This document shows, piece by piece, positions 54,962-61,148 of a stretch of DNA of 64,000 nucleotides. The translations under genes were made by a program, and so were the position numbers. Each line of letters begins with the position of its first letter. Position 1 is the stretch's first letter. Origin of the DNA: an uncultured Chloroflexia bacterium (GTDB lineage Bacteria; Chloroflexota; Limnocylindria; Limnocylindrales; CSP1-4); contig CAWDXA010000011.1 of assembly GCA_963806175.1 (NCBI GenBank), positions 602,065-666,064 on the forward strand. Reading direction: 5' to 3'. The notes under the pieces are model-generated. The model did no database searches. It saw nothing but the letters and a program-made list of their open reading frames with translations, and was not told the DNA's origin.

Positions 54962-56058
54962 TCATCGATCGTCTCCGTACTTGCGCGCCATGTGCTCGTT
55001 CACGGATTTCGAGATGATCCGCCAGGTTCGGCGGTGCTCGGCTCGGGCCCGCGGATCGCCCTGGCGGGCGGCGTGGGCCATCTCGCGCTCGAGCTTGCGG
55101 TGACTGGCCAGGCGGTCCTCGCTCAGCCGGCCGTCGGCGACGGCGGCACCCACCGCACAACCCGGCTCGCCGGCGTGCGCGCAGTCGCTGAACCGGCAGC
55201 CGGCCGCCAGGGAGGCGACGTCGTCGAAGGCCGGCGCGAGCCCTTCGTCGGCGCCGAGCACCTCGAGCGCGCGGATCCCCGGGGTGTCGACCAGCAGGGC
55301 GCCGCCCGGGCAACTCGAACAGCTCGCGGTGGGTCGTGGTGTGGCGGCCTCGCGAATCCGAGACGCGGACCTCGGCGGTCTTCTGGCGAGCCTCGCCGAG
55401 GAGGGCGTTGACCAGGGTGGACTTGCCGACACCCGACGATCCGAGGATCGCGGCGGTCGTCCCGGGCCGGAGGTGCGCGAGCAGGTCGTCGAGCCCGGCA
55501 CCGGTCCAGGCGGAGACGGCGACCACCGCCACGCCGGGCGCGATCGCGTCCGACCGCGACCAGCCGCCCGTCGGTGTCGCCGTCGAGGTCGGCCTTGTTC
55601 AGGACGACGACCGGGATGATCGCGCTCGACCAGGCGACCGCCAGGTAGCGTTCGATCCGGCGCAGGTTGAAGTCGTTGTCCAGCCCGGCCACGAGCAGCG
55701 CGACGTCGACGTTGGAGGCCATGATCTGCTCGTCGTCGAGGCCGCTTCCATGGCGGGTCCCGTCCGCGGCCATCCGCTTGAAGACGCTTCGACGCGGGAG
55801 GATCGCCGTGATGACGCCGTCGCCGTCGAGGGCGACCCAGTCGCCGACGGTCGGATAGTCCGACGTCGCCAGCGCCTCGAACCGGAACGAGCCCGAGACC
55901 GCGGCCGGCCGGTCGCCCGCGCCGTCGCGGACGATCGAGGTCTCGCGATGGACGGCGACAACCCGGGCCGGGCGCCGGCCCCGGGCCGCGTGCGGCGCGA
56001 AGGCATCGGTCCAGCCGACGTCCCAGCCGAGGGCGCCCAGCGCGCGACCGTCGCCCAT
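54962..56058 (-). pseudogene. rsgA: Ribosome small-subunit-dependent GTPase A, about 3 frame shifts
   Basis: It has an OB-fold N-terminus (GDWVAL), VVLNKADL, GSSGVGKSTLVNALLG, GRHTTTHRELF, DTPGIR and the zinc knuckle CRFSDCAH..EPGCAV. The pieces lie in the frames of ORFs 55123, 54108 and 54962. Confidence 0.85.
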
Positions 56059-56081
56059 CTCCGGCCCTGCCGAATCGGGGA

Positions 56082-57102
56082 TCACGGCTCGACCTCCGGC
56101 TCGAGTGGCTTGCGCCACGCGGTCGAGCGATAAGCGACCTCGAACCCGAGACGTTCGTACAGCTGGAGCGCACCGTTGGGGTTGTCGGCATCGACGCCGA
56201 GACCGGCGGAGGTCAGGCCGCGCTCCCGAAGACGTCGCAGCGATTCGACGATGAGCGCCCCGGCGAGTCCGCGCCGTCGCCACGGCCGGCGGGTGAAGAC
56301 GCTTCCCAGCCAGCCCCGTTCCAGGCCCATCACCTCGTTCTCGGCAGCGTCGATCTTGTTGAGCACCCCGCCTGCCAGCTCGTTGCCATCGAAGGCTACG
56401 ATCCAGAGCGACAGGTCCGTCGACGGCTGGGCTAGCTGGCGCCCGAGTCGCTCCTCCGATTCGTCGACGCCGCCCCAGTGGTCCTGGAATGCCTCCGCCT
56501 GCGCGTGCCAGACCGCGGGTGCCAGGTCGATCGTGATCGGCCGGATGTCGAGTCCACTGGGCAACGGTTGCTCCGGGATGGCCTCGAGGTTCGGCCTCGT
56601 CATGTCGAAGAAGAACCGCGCCGGGGCGAACCCGGCGGCCGTCAGCAGGGCAACGTCGCCCGGCTGGCTGTCGCCGCTGAACGATCCGAACACGCAAGCG
56701 CCGCCCGGTCCATCGCTCCTGGCAAGCGCGCGACTGCGCCGCTCGCTCTCGGCCAGCAGGGCTGTGCCGATGCCGCGCCGGCGCCACGAAGGGTCGACCG
56801 CGCCATCGATGCGGTATTCGCGCAGCCCGTCCGTCGTCTCGACCCATTCTCGCGACGCGACGGCCACCGGCCGCCCGTCGAGCTCGGCGATCGTGACGTC
56901 GCGAACGGGATCGAAATGAGGGCTCGGATGGGCGAAGCGCACCGCCAGCGACTCGATGATCTGCACGTTCAGGCAGGCGATCGGCCTCGGCCTCCGCGTT
57001 CTCGATGCGGACGATCTCGGCCAGGTCGGGCTCGCCCGCGAAGGGACGCAACCGGAGCCCGGCCGGTGCGGCCCGGGGCATGGCCAACGGCGAGTCGCTC
57101 AT
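56082..57102 (-). pseudogene. Second tandem-GNAT acetyltransferase, MshD-like paralogue, one frame shift
   Basis: ORF 56082..56966 (WRRRGIGTALL and TRRPWRRRGLAGALI...LGVDADNPNGALQLYERLGF) is joined to the N-terminus MSDSPLAMPRAAPAGLRLRPF from ORF 55123..57102. The break is near 56975. Confidence 0.65.
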
Positions 57103-57103
57103 C

Positions 57104-57908
57104 TCAGCCGACCCGCTTGAGCTTGCCGGTCCGCTTGGCGTAGCGCTCGGCGCGGCCGAAGGCCCACAGCCCGAACGGGATGAACACGACGCCCATCACG
57201 ATCAGCGGCCAGACGTCGCCGAACAGGTCGAGGACCGAGGTGCCCTTGAGCAGCCCGGCGCGGACGCCGTGGAGGACGTACGTCGCCGGCGACAGGTGCG
57301 ACAGCACCTGCATCCACGGCGGCAGGATGTCGACCGAGTAGTACACGCCGCTGACCAGCAGCAGGCACGACTGCAGCACGAACGTCATCTGCGCGCCGCG
57401 CTCCACGTAGAGCAGCGGCAGGATCGCCGCGATCATGCCGATCCCGACGAAGCTGAACGAGCCGAGGAGCATGAACGCCAGCACGGTCACCGGGTTCGCG
57501 CCGTGCGAGGTCGAGCTGCGGGAAGAACAGGATCAGCACGATGAGGATGACCGTGGTGTGGACCAGGCCATAGACCATCGCGTACAGGACCGACCCGAGC
57601 AGCTGCGACCAGCGCCGGATCGGCGCCATCATCGTGTACTCGAGGGTGCCCTCCCAGCGTTCGACCGAGATCGTCTCGGCGATCCAGCTGAAGACGACCG
57701 ACAGGTAGTTCCAGAAGATCGCCCCGACCATCAGGGTCAGCAGCAGCGTCGGGCTGCCCTGGTCGGCACCGATGAGCGAGATCGACAGCGCGCCCGCGAC
57801 CGAATAGACCAGGAAGGCGATTTCCCAGCCCCAGTAGCGGCGTGTCAGGAAGAAGTTGCGCTCGATGAAGGCGTACGAGGCCTTCAGCTCATGGGCGACG
57901 ATGGTCAC
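57104..57908 (-). pseudogene. ABC-2-type (DrrB-like) exporter permease, one frame shift
   Basis: MTIVAHELKASYAFIERNFFLTRRYWGWEIAFLVYS... is ORF 57099..57908. The C-terminal half is ORF 57104..57490 (LSHLSPATYVLHGVRAGLL). There are six predicted TM helices. The break is near 57500. Confidence 0.8.
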
Positions 57909-57944
57909 GGGAGGATCTCCAGGTGGGGGAGCTGGCCCGGCCCC

Positions 57945-58132
57945 CTAGCGGGACCGGGCCAGCTCCAGACGGGACTCCGCCGCGATTCGCTCGCCGACCG
58001 CGATGACGCGGCGGCCGATCGACCGGCGGATGGACGAGCGGCCGTCGTCGAGCAGGCGCTCGCGCGCGAGCTCCTCGATCAGTCGCTCCTGGCGCTCGCG
58101 CGCCAGTTCGTAGGCCAACTGGTTCAGTTCAT
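57945..58132 (-). pseudogene. Small coiled-coil-like hypothetical protein (~61 aa) between the ABC ATPase and the permease; needs one indel correction
   Basis: AAGGAGG lies 8 nt before ATG 58132, but the frame reads ATG AAC TGA. A shift of one base gives ...LNQLAYELARERQERLIEELARERLLDDGRSSIRRSIGRRVIAVGERIAAESRLELARSR, ending at 57945. Confidence 0.3.
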
Positions 58133-58147
58133 GGTTCTCACCTCCTT

Positions 58148-59051
58148 TCAGTCGTCAGATTCGGTCTCGTCTTCCTCGACGTCGTCGTCGAGGGAGCGAC
58201 CGGTGAAGGTCATGAACACGTCCTCGAGGGTGGCCGGCCGGCCGAGCCGGCTCGCCACCAGGGCGATCAGCCCGTCGGGCGTGTCCTCGGCGACGACACG
58301 GCCGTCGTTGAGGATCGTGATCCGGCCGCACAGGCGTTCTGCCTCGGCCAGGTCGTGGGTCGTCAGGACGATCGTGGCGTCATGGGTCTCGCGAAGCTCC
58401 TCGATGAAGGTCTGGACGTCGAGCTTCGAGCGCGGGTCCAGGCCGGTGGTCGGCTCGTCCAGGAGCAGCAGGGTCGGGCTGGTCAGCAGTGCTCGCGCGA
58501 TCGCGACCTTCTGCTGCATGCCCCGGCTCATCTGCTCGATCGGACGGGTCGTCCGGTTGGCGCCGATGCCGAGCCGGGCGAGGATCTGGAGCGCCTCGCG
58601 CTTTGCCGTGGTCCCGTCCATGCCGTACAGGCGGGCGGCGAACAAGCAGGTTCTCCATCGGGCTGAGCTTCTTGAAGAAGGCAGCGTCCACGCTGACCCG
58701 GTTGATCAGCCGCTTGACCGCCATCTCGTCGCGAACGATGTCGTGCCCGAAGACCTCGACCCGGCCCTCGTCGAGGGTCAGGAGCCCGCAGATCAGCCGG
58801 ATGAGCGTCGACTTGCCCGAGCCGTTGGCCCCCAGGATCCCGTGGATGTCGCCGCGCTCGAGGCGCATCGACACGTGCGAGATCGCGCTGACCGGCTTGC
58901 GCTTGCGCCCGACGATGAACCGCTTGCTGGCGTCCTCGATCAGGAGGGCGGGCAGGGCGGGATGCCGCTGGGCGATTGCGACCGGCTGGGTCGGCCGGCT
59001 CGGCGAGCCGTTCGATCCGTTCTTCAGTTCCGGGAGAAGGGTGGCGGTCAC
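58148..59051 (-). pseudogene. ABC transporter ATP-binding protein (DrrA-like), one frame shift
   Basis: It has Walker A GANGSGKST (frame of ORF 58380..59381), the signature MSRGMQQKV and Walker B LLLLDEPTTGLD (ORF 58148..58645). The GTG start at 59051 is tentative. The break is near 58650. Confidence 0.85.
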
Positions 59052-59193
59052 GGTTGGTGCTCCAGGTGTTGCGGGAGGTTCGGGGATGGCGTCCGAAAAC
59101 GACAAGAGCCGCGGGCTCCGACCCGACGTGCTCGACGTCGGGGGCCTCGCGGCTCCTGGTGTCCGGTCCTGCGGGACGCAGGCACTGGGCATC

Positions 59194-59226
59194 AAAAAAG
59201 CCGGGGGCCCGATCTGGCCCACGGCT
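59194..59226 (-). terminator. Intrinsic terminator: 11-bp GC stem (one mismatch) followed by U6
   Basis: The minus-strand RNA reads AGCCGUGGGCC-AGAUCG-GGCCCCCGGCU-UUUUUU. It lies 38 nt after the stop of the 28-codon ORF and 143 nt before the ABC ATPase start. A T6 run is rare in this genome. Confidence 0.7.
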
Positions 59227-59263
59227 CGTGGTTCGTCCGGTCGGCGGTCCTGCCGCCTGCGGT

Positions 59264-59350
59264 CTAGCTCGAGATGGGCACAGATCTCCCGATGCCATCG
59301 GCGCCGGTAGGCGCAACGCATCGGTTGAGGAGGAACGTCTTCGTCGTCAT
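59264..59350 (-). CDS. 28-codon leader/small peptide ORF (MTTKTFLLNRCVAPTGADGIGRSVPISS)
   Basis: AAGGAGG lies 9 nt upstream of ATG 59350, and the stop is TAG 59264-59266. It has its own consensus-like promoter and is followed by an intrinsic terminator. Confidence 0.5.
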   Translation of the reverse strand: MTTKTFLLNRCVAPTGADGIGRSVPISS

Positions 59351-59402
59351 TCGGAGCCGCCTCCTTTGTCGTGATCTGCACGCGACATGCGAGCCGGACG
59401 GG

Positions 59403-59432
59403 AGTCTACCCGGGCTGTCGAGCCGGTGTCAA
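59403..59432 (-). promoter_or_regulatory. Near-consensus promoter driving the 28-codon ORF
   Basis: On the minus strand, TTGACA (59432-59427), an 18-nt spacer and TAGACT (59408-59403). The -35 overlaps the stop codon of the upstream GNAT gene. Confidence 0.55.
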
Positions 59433-60031
59433 CCCGATACCCGACCCTCGTGGCGGACGAGGTCGAGCCGCACGATCGGTCGGACCGGGGTCGTCGCGTT
59501 CCATTGCCGCCGGGCCACGACCTCGAAGCCCGCGCGCTCGAACATCGCGAGCGTGCCGCGGAAGACGTCGCCCGACGCGATCCGACCACCCGCGGGGATC
59601 TCGACCGGGTAGGCCTCCAGTGTCGTTGCGCCGAGCTCGCGGGCGTAGCCGATCCCCGCATCGAGGAGCGCCCGTGCCAGTCCGTGTCCACGGGCCCGAC
59701 GTGCGACGACGAAGCAGACGATCGACCAGACCGGCCGGTCATCGACCGGGGCCAGGACCTTTGAGTGGGCGAGGCGCTCATAGTCCTCGCGCGGCCCGAT
59801 GCTGATCCAGCCGACCGCGCCATCGGCATCGTAGGCCACCAGACCGGGCGCGCGGCCCAGCGCCACGCCATCCTCGACCGCGGTCTCGAGCACCGCCCGA
59901 TGCCGGACCTTGGCCGCGCCCGAGAATTCGACGCCGCGGACGCGGAAGTAGGCGCACCAGCACCACTTGGGGTCGCCGCCCTCCTCGAAGAGGTCGGCGA
60001 GATCTGGCAGGCGTTCCGGCGTCAGGGGCAT
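59429..60031 (-). CDS. GNAT-family N-acetyltransferase
   Basis: It lies in ORF 59429..60190, with the probable start MPLTPERLPDLADLF at 60031. It has VVARRARGHGLARALLDAGIGYARELG (acetyl-CoA site) and is intact. Confidence 0.8.
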   Translation of the reverse strand: MPLTPERLPDLADLFEEGGDPKWCWCAYFRVRGVEFSGAAKVRHRAVLETAVEDGVALGRAPGLVAYDADGAVGWISIGPREDYERLAHSKVLAPVDDRPVWSIVCFVVARRARGHGLARALLDAGIGYARELGATTLEAYPVEIPAGGRIASGDVFRGTLAMFERAGFEVVARRQWNATTPVRPIVRLDLVRHEGRVSG

Positions 60032-60104
60032 GATCGACAGGTCTTTGAGCGTCACGCGGGGATCCTCACCTGCAATCCTGCCATCTGCTGTCGACATCGA
60101 TGGG

Positions 60105-61148
60105 TTACCCGAGGACATACCGCTCGGCCAGCCGGCTGACCTGGGCGAGGGCGTCGTCGCGCAGCTCGAGGCGGCCCCATTGGGCGTCATCCACGGAGAG
60201 CGCGACCAGCCCTGCGTACATGAGGATCCGGACGTGATGCTGGAGGCTGGTCCTCGGGACCCCCAGTCGCTCCGCGAGGTCCGTGAGGGTGAGCGGTCCG
60301 TGGCGCAGCTCGCGCAGCGCCTTCAGCCGCAGCGGGTCCCCAAGCGCCTTGCCCAGGCGGACCAGAGTCTCGGGAGGAATGTCGGGATCGACACCGGATG
60401 CCCCGGCCGGATAGGCGATCAGCAACGTCGATCCGTGGTCACCGATGACGTACCCGGGGCGGAGGACGAGGTCGGGGATCAGGACGACGAGCGACTGACC
60501 GACCTCGCGGGCGAAATTGATCCCGGGCGCGATCCGTTCGAGGACGGCGTCGAGCTCCATGGCGCCGGTCAGCTCACGAACCGCCCGGGCGTCCTCGAGC
60601 TGGGCGTTGCCGATCCCAAGCTCGAGCTCGGCGAACCCGCGTTCGTACCAGGCCCGCAGGACGTCGACCACGTCAGCCCGGACGCGGTCCGGCGGTGCGG
60701 ACAACAGGTGGCGAAGGCTGGCCTGCCAGTAGCGAAGGTCCGGAAAGGATGTGCGCCGGAATTCCCATCGCGCATCTTCGTCGCCATCGACGGCGGCCCG
60801 AATGACCGCGGCCGGTGTCACGAGGCGCATCGCCCGGCGGTGGTAGCCGACGAGGGCACGGACGACCTCGCGGTCCGTCGCCGAGGCGAGTGCCGTCAGC
60901 GCCGCTTCGGCGGTCGGCTCTTCGGTCATCGCGTGGACGAAGCCGAGGAGGTTGATGAACGGCTCGCGGCCGATCCGGCGGATGCCGCCCAGGATGTCCG
61001 GGCCTGCCGCCTCGGCTCGCTTCCGCCAGTCAAGCGCGTTGTCGAGCGAGCGACCGGCCTGTCGCTCGGCCACGATCATGGCGCTGAGCAACAGTTCGTA
61101 GCCGGTGCCCGGCTGGACGATCACGCGAACGCTCTCCATGTACCGCAA
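60105..61148 (-). CDS. ArsR/SmtB-type wHTH regulator with a ~250-aa N-terminal domain of unknown function (DUF5937-like; family recalled from memory)
   Basis: ORF 60105..61148 has the C-terminal LGDPLRLKALRELRHGPLTLTDLAERLGVPRTSLQHHVRILMYAGLV (ArsR HTH). It is intact. Confidence 0.8.
   Translation of the reverse strand: MRYMESVRVIVQPGTGYELLLSAMIVAERQAGRSLDNALDWRKRAEAAGPDILGGIRRIGREPFINLLGFVHAMTEEPTAEAALTALASATDREVVRALVGYHRRAMRLVTPAAVIRAAVDGDEDARWEFRRTSFPDLRYWQASLRHLLSAPPDRVRADVVDVLRAWYERGFAELELGIGNAQLEDARAVRELTGAMELDAVLERIAPGINFAREVGQSLVVLIPDLVLRPGYVIGDHGSTLLIAYPAGASGVDPDIPPETLVRLGKALGDPLRLKALRELRHGPLTLTDLAERLGVPRTSLQHHVRILMYAGLVALSVDDAQWGRLELRDDALAQVSRLAERYVLG

Follow-up and report, generated by a model that had tools for sequence, protein, structure and literature searches.

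A conserved candidate leader-peptide attenuator upstream of a DrrAB-like ABC-2 exporter operon in Limnocylindria

The DNA under study comes from an uncultured Chloroflexota soil bacterium of the class Limnocylindria, and the whole stretch analysed, 64 kb in length, is referred to here as the window. All of the elements described below lie on its minus strand, where three genes make up an exporter operon. The first encodes an ABC ATPase (58148–59063, counted from a GGAG Shine-Dalgarno sequence at 59063–59060, with a GTG start at 59051 and a stop at 58148) that matches the Pfam family ABC_tran with E = 3e-32. The last encodes an ABC-2 permease (57104–57908; Pfam ABC2_membrane, E = 3e-18). Between them, tblastn located a small Arg/Glu-rich protein of approximately 62 amino acids (57945–58132), which is full-length in 60 of the 80 loci compared and for which neither Pfam nor NCBIfam returned a family. 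The best NCBIfam match of the ATPase was to the DrrA subfamily with a score of 220 bits, under the cutoff of 312 bits, and the permease matched the DrrB subfamily with 50 bits, under the cutoff of 223 bits (models TIGR01188 and TIGR01247). Since the Pfam domains are present while these curated cutoffs are not reached, the pump is described as DrrAB-like in architecture only. One neighbouring gene encodes a GNAT protein, and the product of another contains an RsgA GTPase domain.

A preliminary description of this DNA had named a DrrAB-like exporter operon with an ATPase, a small ORF and an ABC-2 permease. The three genes are indeed present, but none of them is uninterrupted, as each carries a frameshift of one nucleotide: an insertion near 58643 in the ATPase (mapped against L001–L003), a deletion near 58126 in the gene of the 62-residue protein, and an insertion near 57504 in the permease. 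Homologues of the ATPase are intact, with about 300 amino acids and up to 97% identity, and the reconstructed permease matches 78 loci over residues 1–267 with up to 98.5% identity. With all three genes frameshifted, the system may be inactive in this genome, or the frameshifts may be assembly errors.

The leader of this operon was compared across 80 species-level genomes and 120 metagenome contigs. Every one of the 80 species-level loci has recognisably conserved leader DNA 5' of its ATPase, and the ATPase follows the element in 94 of the 99 contigs with enough sequence. The five apparent exceptions, considered as cases in which the element might precede other genes, have the appearance of deletions or remnants. 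No further copies were found within the window. Judged by this conservation in 80 genomes and 120 contigs, the module is a conserved unit rather than a chance arrangement, and in the sequences compared it sits almost only upstream of the operon of ATPase, 62-residue protein and ABC-2 permease.

Each of the elements listed in the preliminary description was found on the minus strand where it had been placed. The first is a near-consensus σ70-type promoter (59403–59432) with TTGACA at 59432–59427, an 18-nt spacer and TAGACT at 59408–59403, and the predicted start of transcription is near 59396. In a consensus scan it was the sole σ70-like match between 50 and 64 kb (14 kb). Among the 53 related loci listed (up to L060, which contains Ns), the hexamers are kept at a score of at least 9.5 in 51, the sequence of the spacer drifts, and the end of the −10 hexamer lies 52–61 nt 5' of the start codon of the small ORF in 47. 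The −35 hexamer shares nucleotides with the stop codon of the GNAT gene upstream.

The 5' untranslated region that follows contains a tentative anti-antiterminator, segment 1 (59373–59395, GGCUCG...GCAGAUC), which is complementary to the 3' end of the small ORF and pairs with it in the minimum free energy structure of a transcript ending at the first terminator. A motif of the GCGCAGAUCGCCCGC type is present in many loci. As a general feature, however, this pairing is marginal over background (−24.6 versus −19.5 kcal/mol, with 25 of 64 loci no higher than the 5th percentile) and is convincing in a subset of loci only, so the outcome for an untranslated leader may differ among clades. Further downstream, the Shine-Dalgarno region (59353–59366) has AAGGAGG at 59366–59360, 9 nt 5' of the ATG, followed by CUCC at 59356–59353 with which it could form a small predicted hairpin; GGAGG...CUCC is also visible in the alignment of related loci (A1).

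The upstream ORF (uORF) consists of 28 codons and a TAG stop (59264–59350; ATG at 59350, TAG at 59266–59264) and encodes MTTKTFLLNRCVAPTGADGIGRSVPISS. Its conservation is that of an ORF. An in-frame ATG 23–31 codons upstream of the stop, followed by an open frame, is found in 76 of the 80 loci compared to none and three in the other two frames, and 74 of the 80 have a Shine-Dalgarno sequence 5' of it. The mean number of in-frame stops across 27 codons is 0.01 versus 0.99 and 0.19 in the other frames. Among 160 unique ORFs, the length varies by whole codons from 25 to 30 with a mode of 27, and the stop is fixed in place while interchangeable in type (TAG 130, TGA 27, TAA 3). The uORF is also present in 94 of 113 metagenome contigs. 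What is expected of an attenuator in this respect, a short leader ORF with its own ribosome-binding site, is thus apparently present.

The amino acid sequence follows a different pattern. The N-terminal half of the peptide is poorly conserved, and the conserved residues, A-P-x-G and G-R-S-V/A-P-I-S-S, coincide with the stems of two RNA helices described below, which would account for their conservation. Non-synonymous changes obey the rules of base pairing: a change from S to F through C to U gives a G·U pair, and V and A exchange at a bulged nucleotide. No known drug-arrest motif was seen to be conserved in a comparison of the orthologous peptides, and searches of the 28-residue peptide against Pfam and NCBIfam gave no matches. 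Near its end, the uORF contains a pair of rare codons, AGA (59287–59285) and UCU (59284–59282). In the long ORFs of the window these are the rarest codons, with 0.5 and 0.7 occurrences per 1000 codons or about 1% of their amino acid families. The pair is near-invariant across loci, with the qualification that the metagenome subset was itself selected on that motif, and the AGA at position −7 is conserved in 97%.

Downstream of the uORF lies the first predicted terminator, T1 (59194–59227, GAGCCGUGGGCC-AGAUCG-GGCCCCCGGCU followed by U6 at 59199–59194), which corresponds to the GC hairpin with a T6 tract noted previously. The stem has 6+5 bp with one U·C mismatch and a folding energy of −21.3 kcal/mol (z = −3.35), and the exact T1 sequence occurs only once in the window. 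Its T6 tract is the one A6/T6 run of the entire 64 kb. Across the 80 species 98.9% of pair cells are paired, with no compensatory pairs. The preliminary description saw no second promoter 3' of the terminator and 5' of the ATPase, and the σ70 consensus scan likewise detected none there, although high-GC promoters can escape such scans. The blocks that are conserved between T1 and the ATPase are the arms of a second hairpin, the Shine-Dalgarno sequence and start region of the ATPase and a short GAUGCC just after the U-tract, none of which is promoter-like. T1 therefore lies, as an intrinsic terminator of this kind should, between the leader ORF and the operon with no intervening promoter-like site.

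The 5' arm and loop of T1 constitute segment 3 (59211–59228, CGAGCCGUGGGCCAGAUC), which is nearly invariant in the 80 species and has two alternative partners. One is segment 4, the 3' arm of T1 (59210–59198). The other is segment 2, formed by the last sense codons of the uORF (59270–59286, GAUCUGUGCCCAUCUCG), with which it would form the antiterminator AT1. An antiterminator of 6+4 bp had been proposed from hand pairing; the pairing is real and longer, as 59286–59270 matches 59228–59211 over 16 bp, from the last eight sense codons to the 5' arm and loop of T1. In the 80 species 95.9% of its pair cells are paired; one pair has changed in a compensatory way, from U-A to C-G in L051, and several other changes are compatible with wobble pairing. 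The fold of AT1, with a further hairpin nested inside, has an energy of −35.9 kcal/mol (z = −2.86). As modelled, AT1 has the properties of an antiterminator, since it shares one strand with T1 and its other strand could be masked by a translating ribosome.

Conservation of the helices was scored by explicit pair counts, as the percentage of pair cells that are paired across the 80 species, because RNAalifold, applied to the whole leader, returned T1, hairpin B, one small local helix and nothing more; its output is sparse because the switch regions are nearly invariant. The comparison of orthologous loci shows the ORF kept in 76 of the 80 and the complementarities of terminator and antiterminator kept across the 80 species, with covariation that is thin since most helix positions do not vary. 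All helices of the window fold better than shuffled sequences (z from −2.9 to −4.1).

Two additional hairpins have no assigned role in the alternative pairings. The first, P1, lies within codons 9–21 of the uORF (59289–59324) with an apex of GCGCC-UACC-GGCGC at 59314–59301 and an energy of −20.9 kcal/mol (z = −4.05). In the apex helix 79.8% of cells are paired, and three of the five pairs have changed on both sides, for example from GCG/GGC to GCA/GGU. P1 would presumably act as a pause or timing element. The second, hairpin B, directly follows the stop codon (59237–59262; core GGCGG-CAGGA-CCGCC at 59257–59243). It is paired in 99.3% of cells with compensatory changes in two pairs, and may be a spacer or a pause site for RNA polymerase.

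Beyond T1, the preliminary description had listed two further hairpins. Their sequences are present; however, they are better read as a single long terminator-like hairpin, T2 (59096–59155). It is composed of segment 5 (59155–59142, GAGCCGCGAGGCCC), an inner hairpin (59142–59122, CCCGACGU-CGAGC-ACGUCGGG), segment 6 (59119–59106, GGAGCCCGCGGCUC) and a U-rich tail (59105–59096, UUGUCGUUUU), such that GAGCCGCG at 59155–59148 pairs with CGCGGCUC at 59113–59106 around the inner hairpin. The energy of T2 is −37.4 kcal/mol (z = −3.87). Its arms are conserved, its interior varies, and six helix pairs have changed on both sides.

The 3' arm of T1 can also pair with the 5' arm of T2, so one decision may switch both terminators. 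This pairing of segments 4 and 5, AT2, is present in 89.5% of cells versus 28–49% when the segments are slid against each other, with a mean duplex energy of −20.5 kcal/mol versus a background of −9.4 kcal/mol. Covariation measures for segments 4 and 5 do not exceed shuffle controls, and part of the complementarity follows automatically from the likeness between the T1 and T2 arms; what points to the relay is conserved complementarity and duplex energy.

Folding of the leader with and without masking of the ORF had been proposed as a check. When the footprint of a ribosome was modelled with its P site within eight codons of the stop, AT1 was abolished in all 65 leaders. With the P site at least 11 codons upstream, AT1 formed in 78–97% of leaders, and with no ribosome in 85%. 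A ribosome placed at the stop left T1 and T2 together in 43 of 64 leaders and AT1 together with AT2 in none. Equilibrium folding was also considered as an arbiter of the default state and rejected, as the results disagree between transcript end points and species. Transcripts ending at T1 fold into T1 in 62 of 75 cases even without a ribosome, and full-length leaders fold into T1 and T2 in 36 of 64 cases and into AT1 and AT2 in nine, the window among them. As folding energies do not settle the matter, the direction assigned to the switch rests on a kinetic, co-transcriptional argument.

Taken with the conservation of the ORF and of both complementarities in 80 species, the footprint models support the suggestion, made in the preliminary description, that the position of the ribosome chooses between terminator and antiterminator. 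We infer that transcription terminates in the leader, that termination depends on the ribosome and that the switch runs in the direction given below. The element is accordingly read, with a probability of about 0.75, as a ribosome-mediated transcription attenuator of the leader-peptide type that controls the DrrAB-like ABC-2 exporter operon.

The σ70-type promoter would give rise to a leader of approximately 345 nt, comprising the translated uORF and six segments with two mutually exclusive sets of pairings. In the proposed off state, a ribosome reaches the last eight or so codons of the uORF or its stop, where it is probably slowed by AGA-UCU, and covers segment 2. Segments 3 and 4 would then form T1 with its U6 tract, transcription should stop about 200 nt from its start, and any polymerase that escapes would meet T2, formed by segments 5 and 6. 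In the proposed on state, the ribosome lags at least 11 codons behind the stop, or is absent, as segment 3 emerges. Segments 2 and 3 would form the 16-bp antiterminator, and the freed segment 4 could pair with segment 5 so that T2 is blocked too, allowing RNA polymerase to read into the genes for the ATPase, the 62-residue protein and the permease. Since ribosome position on the uORF would select the fold, the read-out would be the speed of translation on the uORF. The natural triggers are most likely ribosome-targeting compounds or general translation stress; a link to antibiotics is plausible only by analogy with known systems.

A more elaborate version is put forward tentatively, as a possibility with the odds against it. 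The uORF would be a general gauge of translation capacity rather than a sensor for particular drugs, in which AGA-UCU on the antiterminator strand serves as a parking site that holds the ribosome while RNA polymerase completes the terminator. The six segments would act as a relay, the 3' arm of the first terminator being the antiterminator of the second, so that one decision on ribosome position switches both. A further role in trans is conceivable for the abundant terminated leader of about 200 nt or for the peptide it encodes.

Instead of a drug, a translated leader could alternatively gauge charged tRNA, with a trp/his-type response to limitation of amino acids or tRNA at the Arg codons CGA/CGC at −20/−19 or at AGA-UCU. 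Arg is the commonest residue at −20 (49%) and −19 (57%), often through the rare CGA, the AGA at −7 is 97% conserved with AGA, UCU and CGA all rare in the genome, and footprint modelling indicates that the antiterminator would stay available during a stall at −19/−20. The leader lacks a run of one regulatory codon, however, and about half of the sequences lack Arg at −20 or −19. Base pairing (GAGAUCUG:CAGAUC) also holds AGA-UCU constant, and a ribosome stalled on these two codons would promote termination rather than induction. With an exporter and no biosynthetic pathway downstream, such a sensor appears unlikely. If the small ORF were incidental and a ligand or protein selected the helices, as in a riboswitch or protein-binding leader, the strongly conserved nucleotide blocks and the hairpins P1 and B would find a use, and RNA constraints could explain the conservation of the peptide. 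This is quite improbable given that coding features are conserved: the frame is kept in 76 of 80 loci versus 0–3 of 80 for the others, is free of stops, and ends at a stop that varies in identity and not in position. No conserved multi-helix junction or ligand pocket is obvious, and loop sequences vary. A permissive search of 56000–61000 against Rfam 15 returned no family at its gathering score; the best match, Xoo2, was far under it (26 versus 45 bits, E = 0.058), and nothing else had E < 0.3.

The strong hairpin and U6 of T1 would equally suit a plain terminator that ends a stand-alone small-protein gene or insulates the GNAT gene, with the operon expressed constitutively from a non-consensus promoter 3' of T1 of the type that a σ70 scan can miss at high GC. 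It is very improbable that this is all, as it would leave unexplained the conserved 16-bp complementarity between the ORF end and the terminator arm, as well as the second conserved hairpin and its complementarity to the 3' arm of T1. Moreover, the conserved blocks 3' of T1 include none that resembles a promoter, and the module is strictly linked to the operon. The preliminary description had also raised the alternative that the 28-residue peptide is what the transporter exports, with the hairpin setting the stoichiometry of peptide to transporter; such a peptide would be a signal or an antimicrobial. A short ORF with a strong Shine-Dalgarno sequence does adjoin an exporter and precede a partial terminator, and some leader peptides are known to act in trans, such as peTrpL (PMC7298713). 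Even so, this explanation scarcely merits belief: conservation is poor in the N-terminal half, the conserved residues fall on RNA helices, and amino acid substitutions are tolerated where they keep the pairing or where nothing pairs. Neither a leader or cleavage motif nor a modification enzyme or peptidase-domain transporter was found, and the pump is of the ABC-2/DrrAB-like type.

As a ribosome-mediated attenuator, the element may be compared with several known systems. In the enterobacterial his leader, six segments A–F form A:B, C:D and E:F or else B:C and D:E, and the helix relay proposed here, 1:2, 3:4 and 5:6 versus 2:3 and 4:5, is alike. In leaders of the trp/his type generally, the upstream antiterminator strand is covered by a ribosome that has come to the leader stop codon or close to it. 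Amino acid leaders (trp, his, leu, thr, phe) differ in having a codon cluster and biosynthetic genes, whereas the present element has no codon run and is followed by ABC genes. Unlike in the trp/his leaders, segment 1 is in the 5' untranslated region, outside the ORF, and is weakly supported; furthermore, a terminator-like form is seen in two of the three off helices, compared to only the last in amino acid leaders.

A close parallel is bmrB-bmrCD of Bacillus subtilis, an experimentally demonstrated ribosome-mediated attenuator in which efficient translation of the leader favours termination, slowed translation favours read-through, and rare leader codons influence the outcome (PMC4191407). 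Both systems have a short leader ORF 5' of ABC exporter genes, a terminator, an antiterminator and a possible anti-antiterminator, and the logic proposed here matches the one demonstrated for bmrB-bmrCD. The bmrB peptide has 53 amino acids and its terminator is inside the coding region, whereas the present uORF has 25–30 codons and both terminators are 3' of the stop. BmrCD belongs to the heterodimeric type-I ABC exporters rather than to the ABC-2/DrrAB-like pumps, and there is no sequence similarity between the two elements, one from Bacillota and the other from Chloroflexota.

Leader-peptide-dependent attenuation of efflux and resistance genes is also described for mef/mel and msrD, which are induced by macrolides when stalling prevents a Rho-independent terminator (PMC4335068, PMC10314930). 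Those leaders use defined drug-dependent arrest peptides and regulate an MFS pump and an ABC-F factor. The present leader precedes an ABC-2 pump, and among its orthologous peptides no arrest motif was seen to be conserved independently of RNA structure. For mycobacterial whiB7, a uORF in a long 5' leader is reported to be tied to read-through of a downstream stress and resistance gene, sensing translation stress (PMC10274678). By that description, rather than in structural detail, the likeness is a high-GC bacterium with a uORF-containing leader; whiB7 encodes a transcription factor instead of a transporter, and sequence and taxon are unrelated. The mechanism is familiar in kind, and the family itself is previously undescribed and absent from Rfam. 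A literature search found nothing specific on this element, on attenuators in Chloroflexi or on attenuators of DrrAB-type pumps.

The Limnocylindria are an abundant yet uncultured class of soil and groundwater Chloroflexota. To our knowledge, essentially no gene regulation has been described in them. The element provides this class with a well-defined and testable cis-regulatory family and suggests that, at the sequence level at least, classical ribosome-coupled attenuation operates in the lineage. Noteworthy details of its design are the proposed coupling of two terminators and the placement of two rare codons on the strand that forms the antiterminator. As the preliminary description had anticipated, the system escapes default annotation, and the family could enter the RNA and uORF annotation resources that now miss it. 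With its proposed function in mind, the element would mark a core ABC-2 exporter as one that is switched on when translation falters, which offers a lead to what the exporter does, possibly the export of ribosome-targeting natural products in soil.

The leader of the exporter operon is most probably a ribosome-dependent attenuator, a reading to which we give a probability of about 0.75 from the arrangement and conservation of its parts. All leader and operon features lie on the minus strand, where every element named in the preliminary description was found in place. A −35 hexamer TTGACA (59432–59427) is followed by an 18-nt spacer and a −10 hexamer TAGACT (59408–59403). The Shine–Dalgarno (SD) sequence AAGGAGG (59366–59360) lies 9 nt 5′ of the ATG at 59350, which opens a 28-codon small ORF (uORF) ending at a TAG stop (59266–59264). 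Downstream are a GC-rich hairpin with a T6 tract (59227–59194), the first terminator or T1, and additional hairpins 5′ of the GTG start of the ATPase gene (59051). The window has a G+C content of 72% and, as had been claimed, T6 is rare: the tract at 59194–59199 is the sole six-long run of A or T in 64 kb, one other run of five occurs at 1110, and the terminator sequence is unique within the window.

A promoter scan identified the TTGACA/TAGACT pair as the sole promoter-like site in 50–64 kb. The hexamers are kept in 51 of the 53 related loci listed (score of at least 9.5, at most one mismatch), and in 47 of these 51 the −10 hexamer ends 52–61 nt 5′ of the uORF start codon. The spacer sequence drifts freely among the 53 loci. 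Such a pattern is expected of a functional promoter and not of general sequence conservation, and the pair is regarded as functional. The TGA stop of an upstream GNAT acetyltransferase ORF (59429–60190, also minus strand) overlaps the −35 hexamer. The GGAGG of the uORF SD is complementary to CUCC just downstream (59356–59353) and, alternatively, to CCUCCU in uORF codons 7–8 (59332–59327), and an invariant GGGAG at codons 21–22 resembles an SD. These features could limit ribosome loading or provide extra alternative pairings.

The related loci used for comparison are the closest 80 of 420 relatives, one genome per species, and their divergence is modest. The small ORF of the preliminary description held up in this set: an open frame with an ATG 23–31 codons 5′ of the aligned stop is present in 76 of 80 loci, with an SD before the ATG in 74 of those 76. 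The other two frames have an ATG and open frame in 0 and 3 of 80 loci, and the mean number of in-frame stops across 27 codons is 0.01 in the uORF frame versus 0.99 and 0.19. Length varies from 25 to 30 codons (mode 27). The position of the stop is fixed and its identity varies (TAG 130, TGA 27, TAA 3; n = 160 unique ORFs). The consensus peptide is M-x-M-x-x-L-L-R-R-T-V-A-P-I-G-A-x-D-R-G-R-S-[V/A]-P-I-S-S, in which the conserved A-P and G-A encode the GCGCC/GGCGC stem of P1, a hairpin inside the uORF, and G-R-S-V-P-I-S corresponds to the antiterminator strand. An S to F substitution in seven species is a C to U change that yields a G·U pair, the V/A alternation falls on a bulged nucleotide, and the synonymous P1 changes GCG to GCA and GGC to GGU are mutually compensating in L012 and L069. 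Because the features of the ORF are kept while its residues track RNA helices, it is concluded that translation of the uORF matters and that the identity of the peptide is probably without importance. No conserved arrest motif separable from RNA constraints was found in the uORF peptide.

Pairs were counted explicitly for each structure on an alignment of 80 leaders. T1, formed by segments 3 and 4, has 98.9% of cells paired and an energy of −21.3 kcal/mol (z = −3.35). The antiterminator, AT1, joins segments 2 and 3 by pairing GAUCUG-U-GCCCAU-CUCG (59286–59270) with CGAG-CC-GUGGGC-CAGAUC (59228–59211). Hand pairing had earlier suggested an antiterminator of 6+4 bp; the pairing is real, and its length had been underestimated, as AT1 spans 16 bp with 95.9% of cells paired. 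AT1 has a single compensatory change, U-A to C-G in one locus (L051), and wobble-compatible one-sided changes at two additional pairs. Most T1 and AT1 positions are invariant, as expected where a strand is constrained two or three times over, and this limits the covariation evidence. Hairpin B (GGCGG/CCGCC, 59257–59243), just 3′ of the stop, has 99.3% of cells paired and two compensatory pairs, and P1 (59324–59289; −20.9 kcal/mol, z = −4.05) covaries at three of the five pairs of its apex. Several helices rest on conserved complementarity rather than covariation.

Conservation between T1 and the ATPase gene is found mainly in two arms, GAGCCGCG(A)GGCCC (59155–59142) and GG(A)GCCCGCGGCUC (59119–59106), with a variable interior between them and a U-rich tail (59105–59096) after the second. 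Together they make a second terminator-like hairpin, T2 (segments 5 and 6), with an energy of −37.4 kcal/mol in the window (z = −3.87) and changes on both sides at six pairs. The two downstream hairpins reported previously have the correct sequences but are better regarded as the interior and 3′ arm of T2. The T1 3′ arm and the T2 5′ arm are complementary over 12 pairs, with 89.5% of cells paired compared to 28–49% in a slid control, and the mean duplex energy is −20.5 kcal/mol versus −9.4 kcal/mol for 15-mers taken from coding sequence of these loci. One clade places GGGUCCACGG opposite CCG[C/U]GGACC in this segment 4:5 helix. Covariation measures for the helix were no higher than in shuffle controls, and part of the complementarity is automatic, arising from the likeness of the two terminators. 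A segment 4:5 relay is nonetheless likely to be real. The minimum free energy fold of the full-length window leader contains AT1 and the 4:5 helix together, and a fold in which a ribosome footprint covers the stop codon contains T1 and T2 together.

Folding with and without masking of the ORF, as had been proposed, revealed that AT1 depends on ribosome position in the modelled leaders. When leaders were folded to the end of segment 3, a stage at which the T1 3′ arm is not yet made, and 30 nt were masked as the ribosome footprint, AT1 formed in 0 of 65 leaders with the P site within the last eight codons, in 78–97% with the P site at least 11 codons 5′ of the stop, and in 85% with the ribosome absent. 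Folding longer transcripts to equilibrium gives a less clear picture: T1 is preferred in 62 of 75 transcripts ending at T1, and full-length leaders divide between the T1/T2 and antiterminator states. As a result, the direction of the switch rests on a kinetic argument in which the first available partner of segment 3 would win. On that argument, the modelling leans toward termination with a timely ribosome and read-through with a delayed or absent one. Segment 1, a 5′ UTR stretch (59395–59373), is complementary to the uORF end both in the window and where a locus has the GCGCAGAUCGCCCGC motif; overall this pairing is just marginally above background, so the fate of untranslated leaders, including their termination, may differ between clades.

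In the proposed mechanism, transcription is predicted to start near 59396 and a ribosome would load at the uORF. With translation keeping pace, the ribosome would occupy the last codons or the stop as segment 3 emerges, T1 would form, and transcription would end after approximately 200 nt, T2 serving as a back-up. With the ribosome delayed upstream or absent, segment 2 would capture segment 3, the freed T1 3′ arm would capture the T2 5′ arm, and RNA polymerase would continue into the exporter genes. The adjacent uORF codons 22–23, AGA-UCU (59282–59287), lie on the antiterminator strand and are near-invariant across loci. At 0.5 and 0.7 per 1000 codons they are the rarest in the long ORFs of the window, where GC3 is 0.91 and they account for about 1% of the codons for Arg and Ser; CGA, GUU, and CCU of the uORF are rare too. 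Slowing of the ribosome at AGA-UCU may aid termination, since segment 2 would stay masked as RNA polymerase finishes T1. These codons are also fixed by base pairing, and cause and effect are inseparable.

The window leader matches the region directly 5′ of the ATPase gene in 80 of 80 loci by blastn, with the strongest conserved core (59314–59186) extending from the uORF end through the T-tract. The element pattern matches at least 120 metagenome contigs, chosen by a pattern drawn from the element itself. Among the matches listed, 99 contigs extend far enough downstream; in 94 of them the ATPase gene lies 3′ of the element in the same orientation, and the other five have the appearance of deletions or remnants. 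From this linkage, the leader module is assigned to the operon of the ATPase, a 62-aa protein, and the permease. Variant contigs (L153, L162, L122, L166, L096) present two kinds of rearranged or decayed leader: in some it is fused to the last ATPase codons and the small ORF, so that the ATPase is deleted, and in others a degenerate remnant lies beside unrelated sequence. Such contigs may reflect natural deletion or chimeric assembly. In one species the leader is divergent (L067:3586–3783): it is missing the aligned stop, has an ORF about five codons longer, and still has an A-like segment and the GGGCCCCCCGGCUUUUUU terminator arm. Typical Limnocylindria-type leaders and operons also occur in MAGs labelled Patescibacteria, Methylomirabilota, and Zixiibacteriota (L030, L046, L072), probably due to mis-binned contigs.

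Metagenomes and MAGs under the label Candidatus Limnocylindria/Limnocylindrales (phylum Chloroflexota) supply hundreds of close relatives of the ATPase, of about 300 aa and up to 97% identity. By Pfam, the ATPase contains an ABC_tran domain, and the membrane protein encoded downstream contains ABC2_membrane. The top NCBIfam models were the DrrA and DrrB subfamilies, both well under curated cutoffs, and the pump is therefore considered DrrAB-like in architecture only. The intervening Arg- and Glu-rich 62-aa protein (MN.NQLAYELARERQERLIEELARERLL...; 57945–58132) is kept in 60 of 80 loci and matched no family in Pfam or NCBIfam; it is probably helical and may be an accessory or regulatory pump subunit. 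Relatives of the GNAT protein occur in 52 of 80 loci. The C-terminal part of a 659-aa ORF downstream of the operon (55123–57102, minus strand) contains an RsgA GTPase domain, and relatives of this ORF occur in 68 of 80 loci. Relative to three close relatives with intact genes, all three operon genes (59051–57104) are broken by indels of one base, located near 58643, 58126, and 57504. These are either errors of assembly, many of the relatives being long-read MAGs, or a sign that the entire operon was inactivated very recently; none of the indels is within a long homopolymer.

In its logic the leader follows the classical leader-peptide attenuators. The Salmonella his leader is of a six-segment relay type, to which segments 1–6 may be likened. 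The element is not an amino-acid leader, there being neither a codon run nor biosynthetic genes. In bmrB-bmrCD, leader translation, a terminator, and rare codons have been demonstrated by experiment to control an ABC exporter (PMC4191407). By analogy with that system, the trigger is likely to be slowed translation, via ribosome-targeting compounds or translation stress; that antibiotics are the natural signal is a more tentative proposal. The leader matched no Rfam family, and a full-text literature search identified no description of the element and no attenuators in Chloroflexi or before DrrAB-type pumps. Judged from its sequence, the element is thus a new family of a known mechanistic type, and it comes from a lineage for which no regulation is known to have been described.
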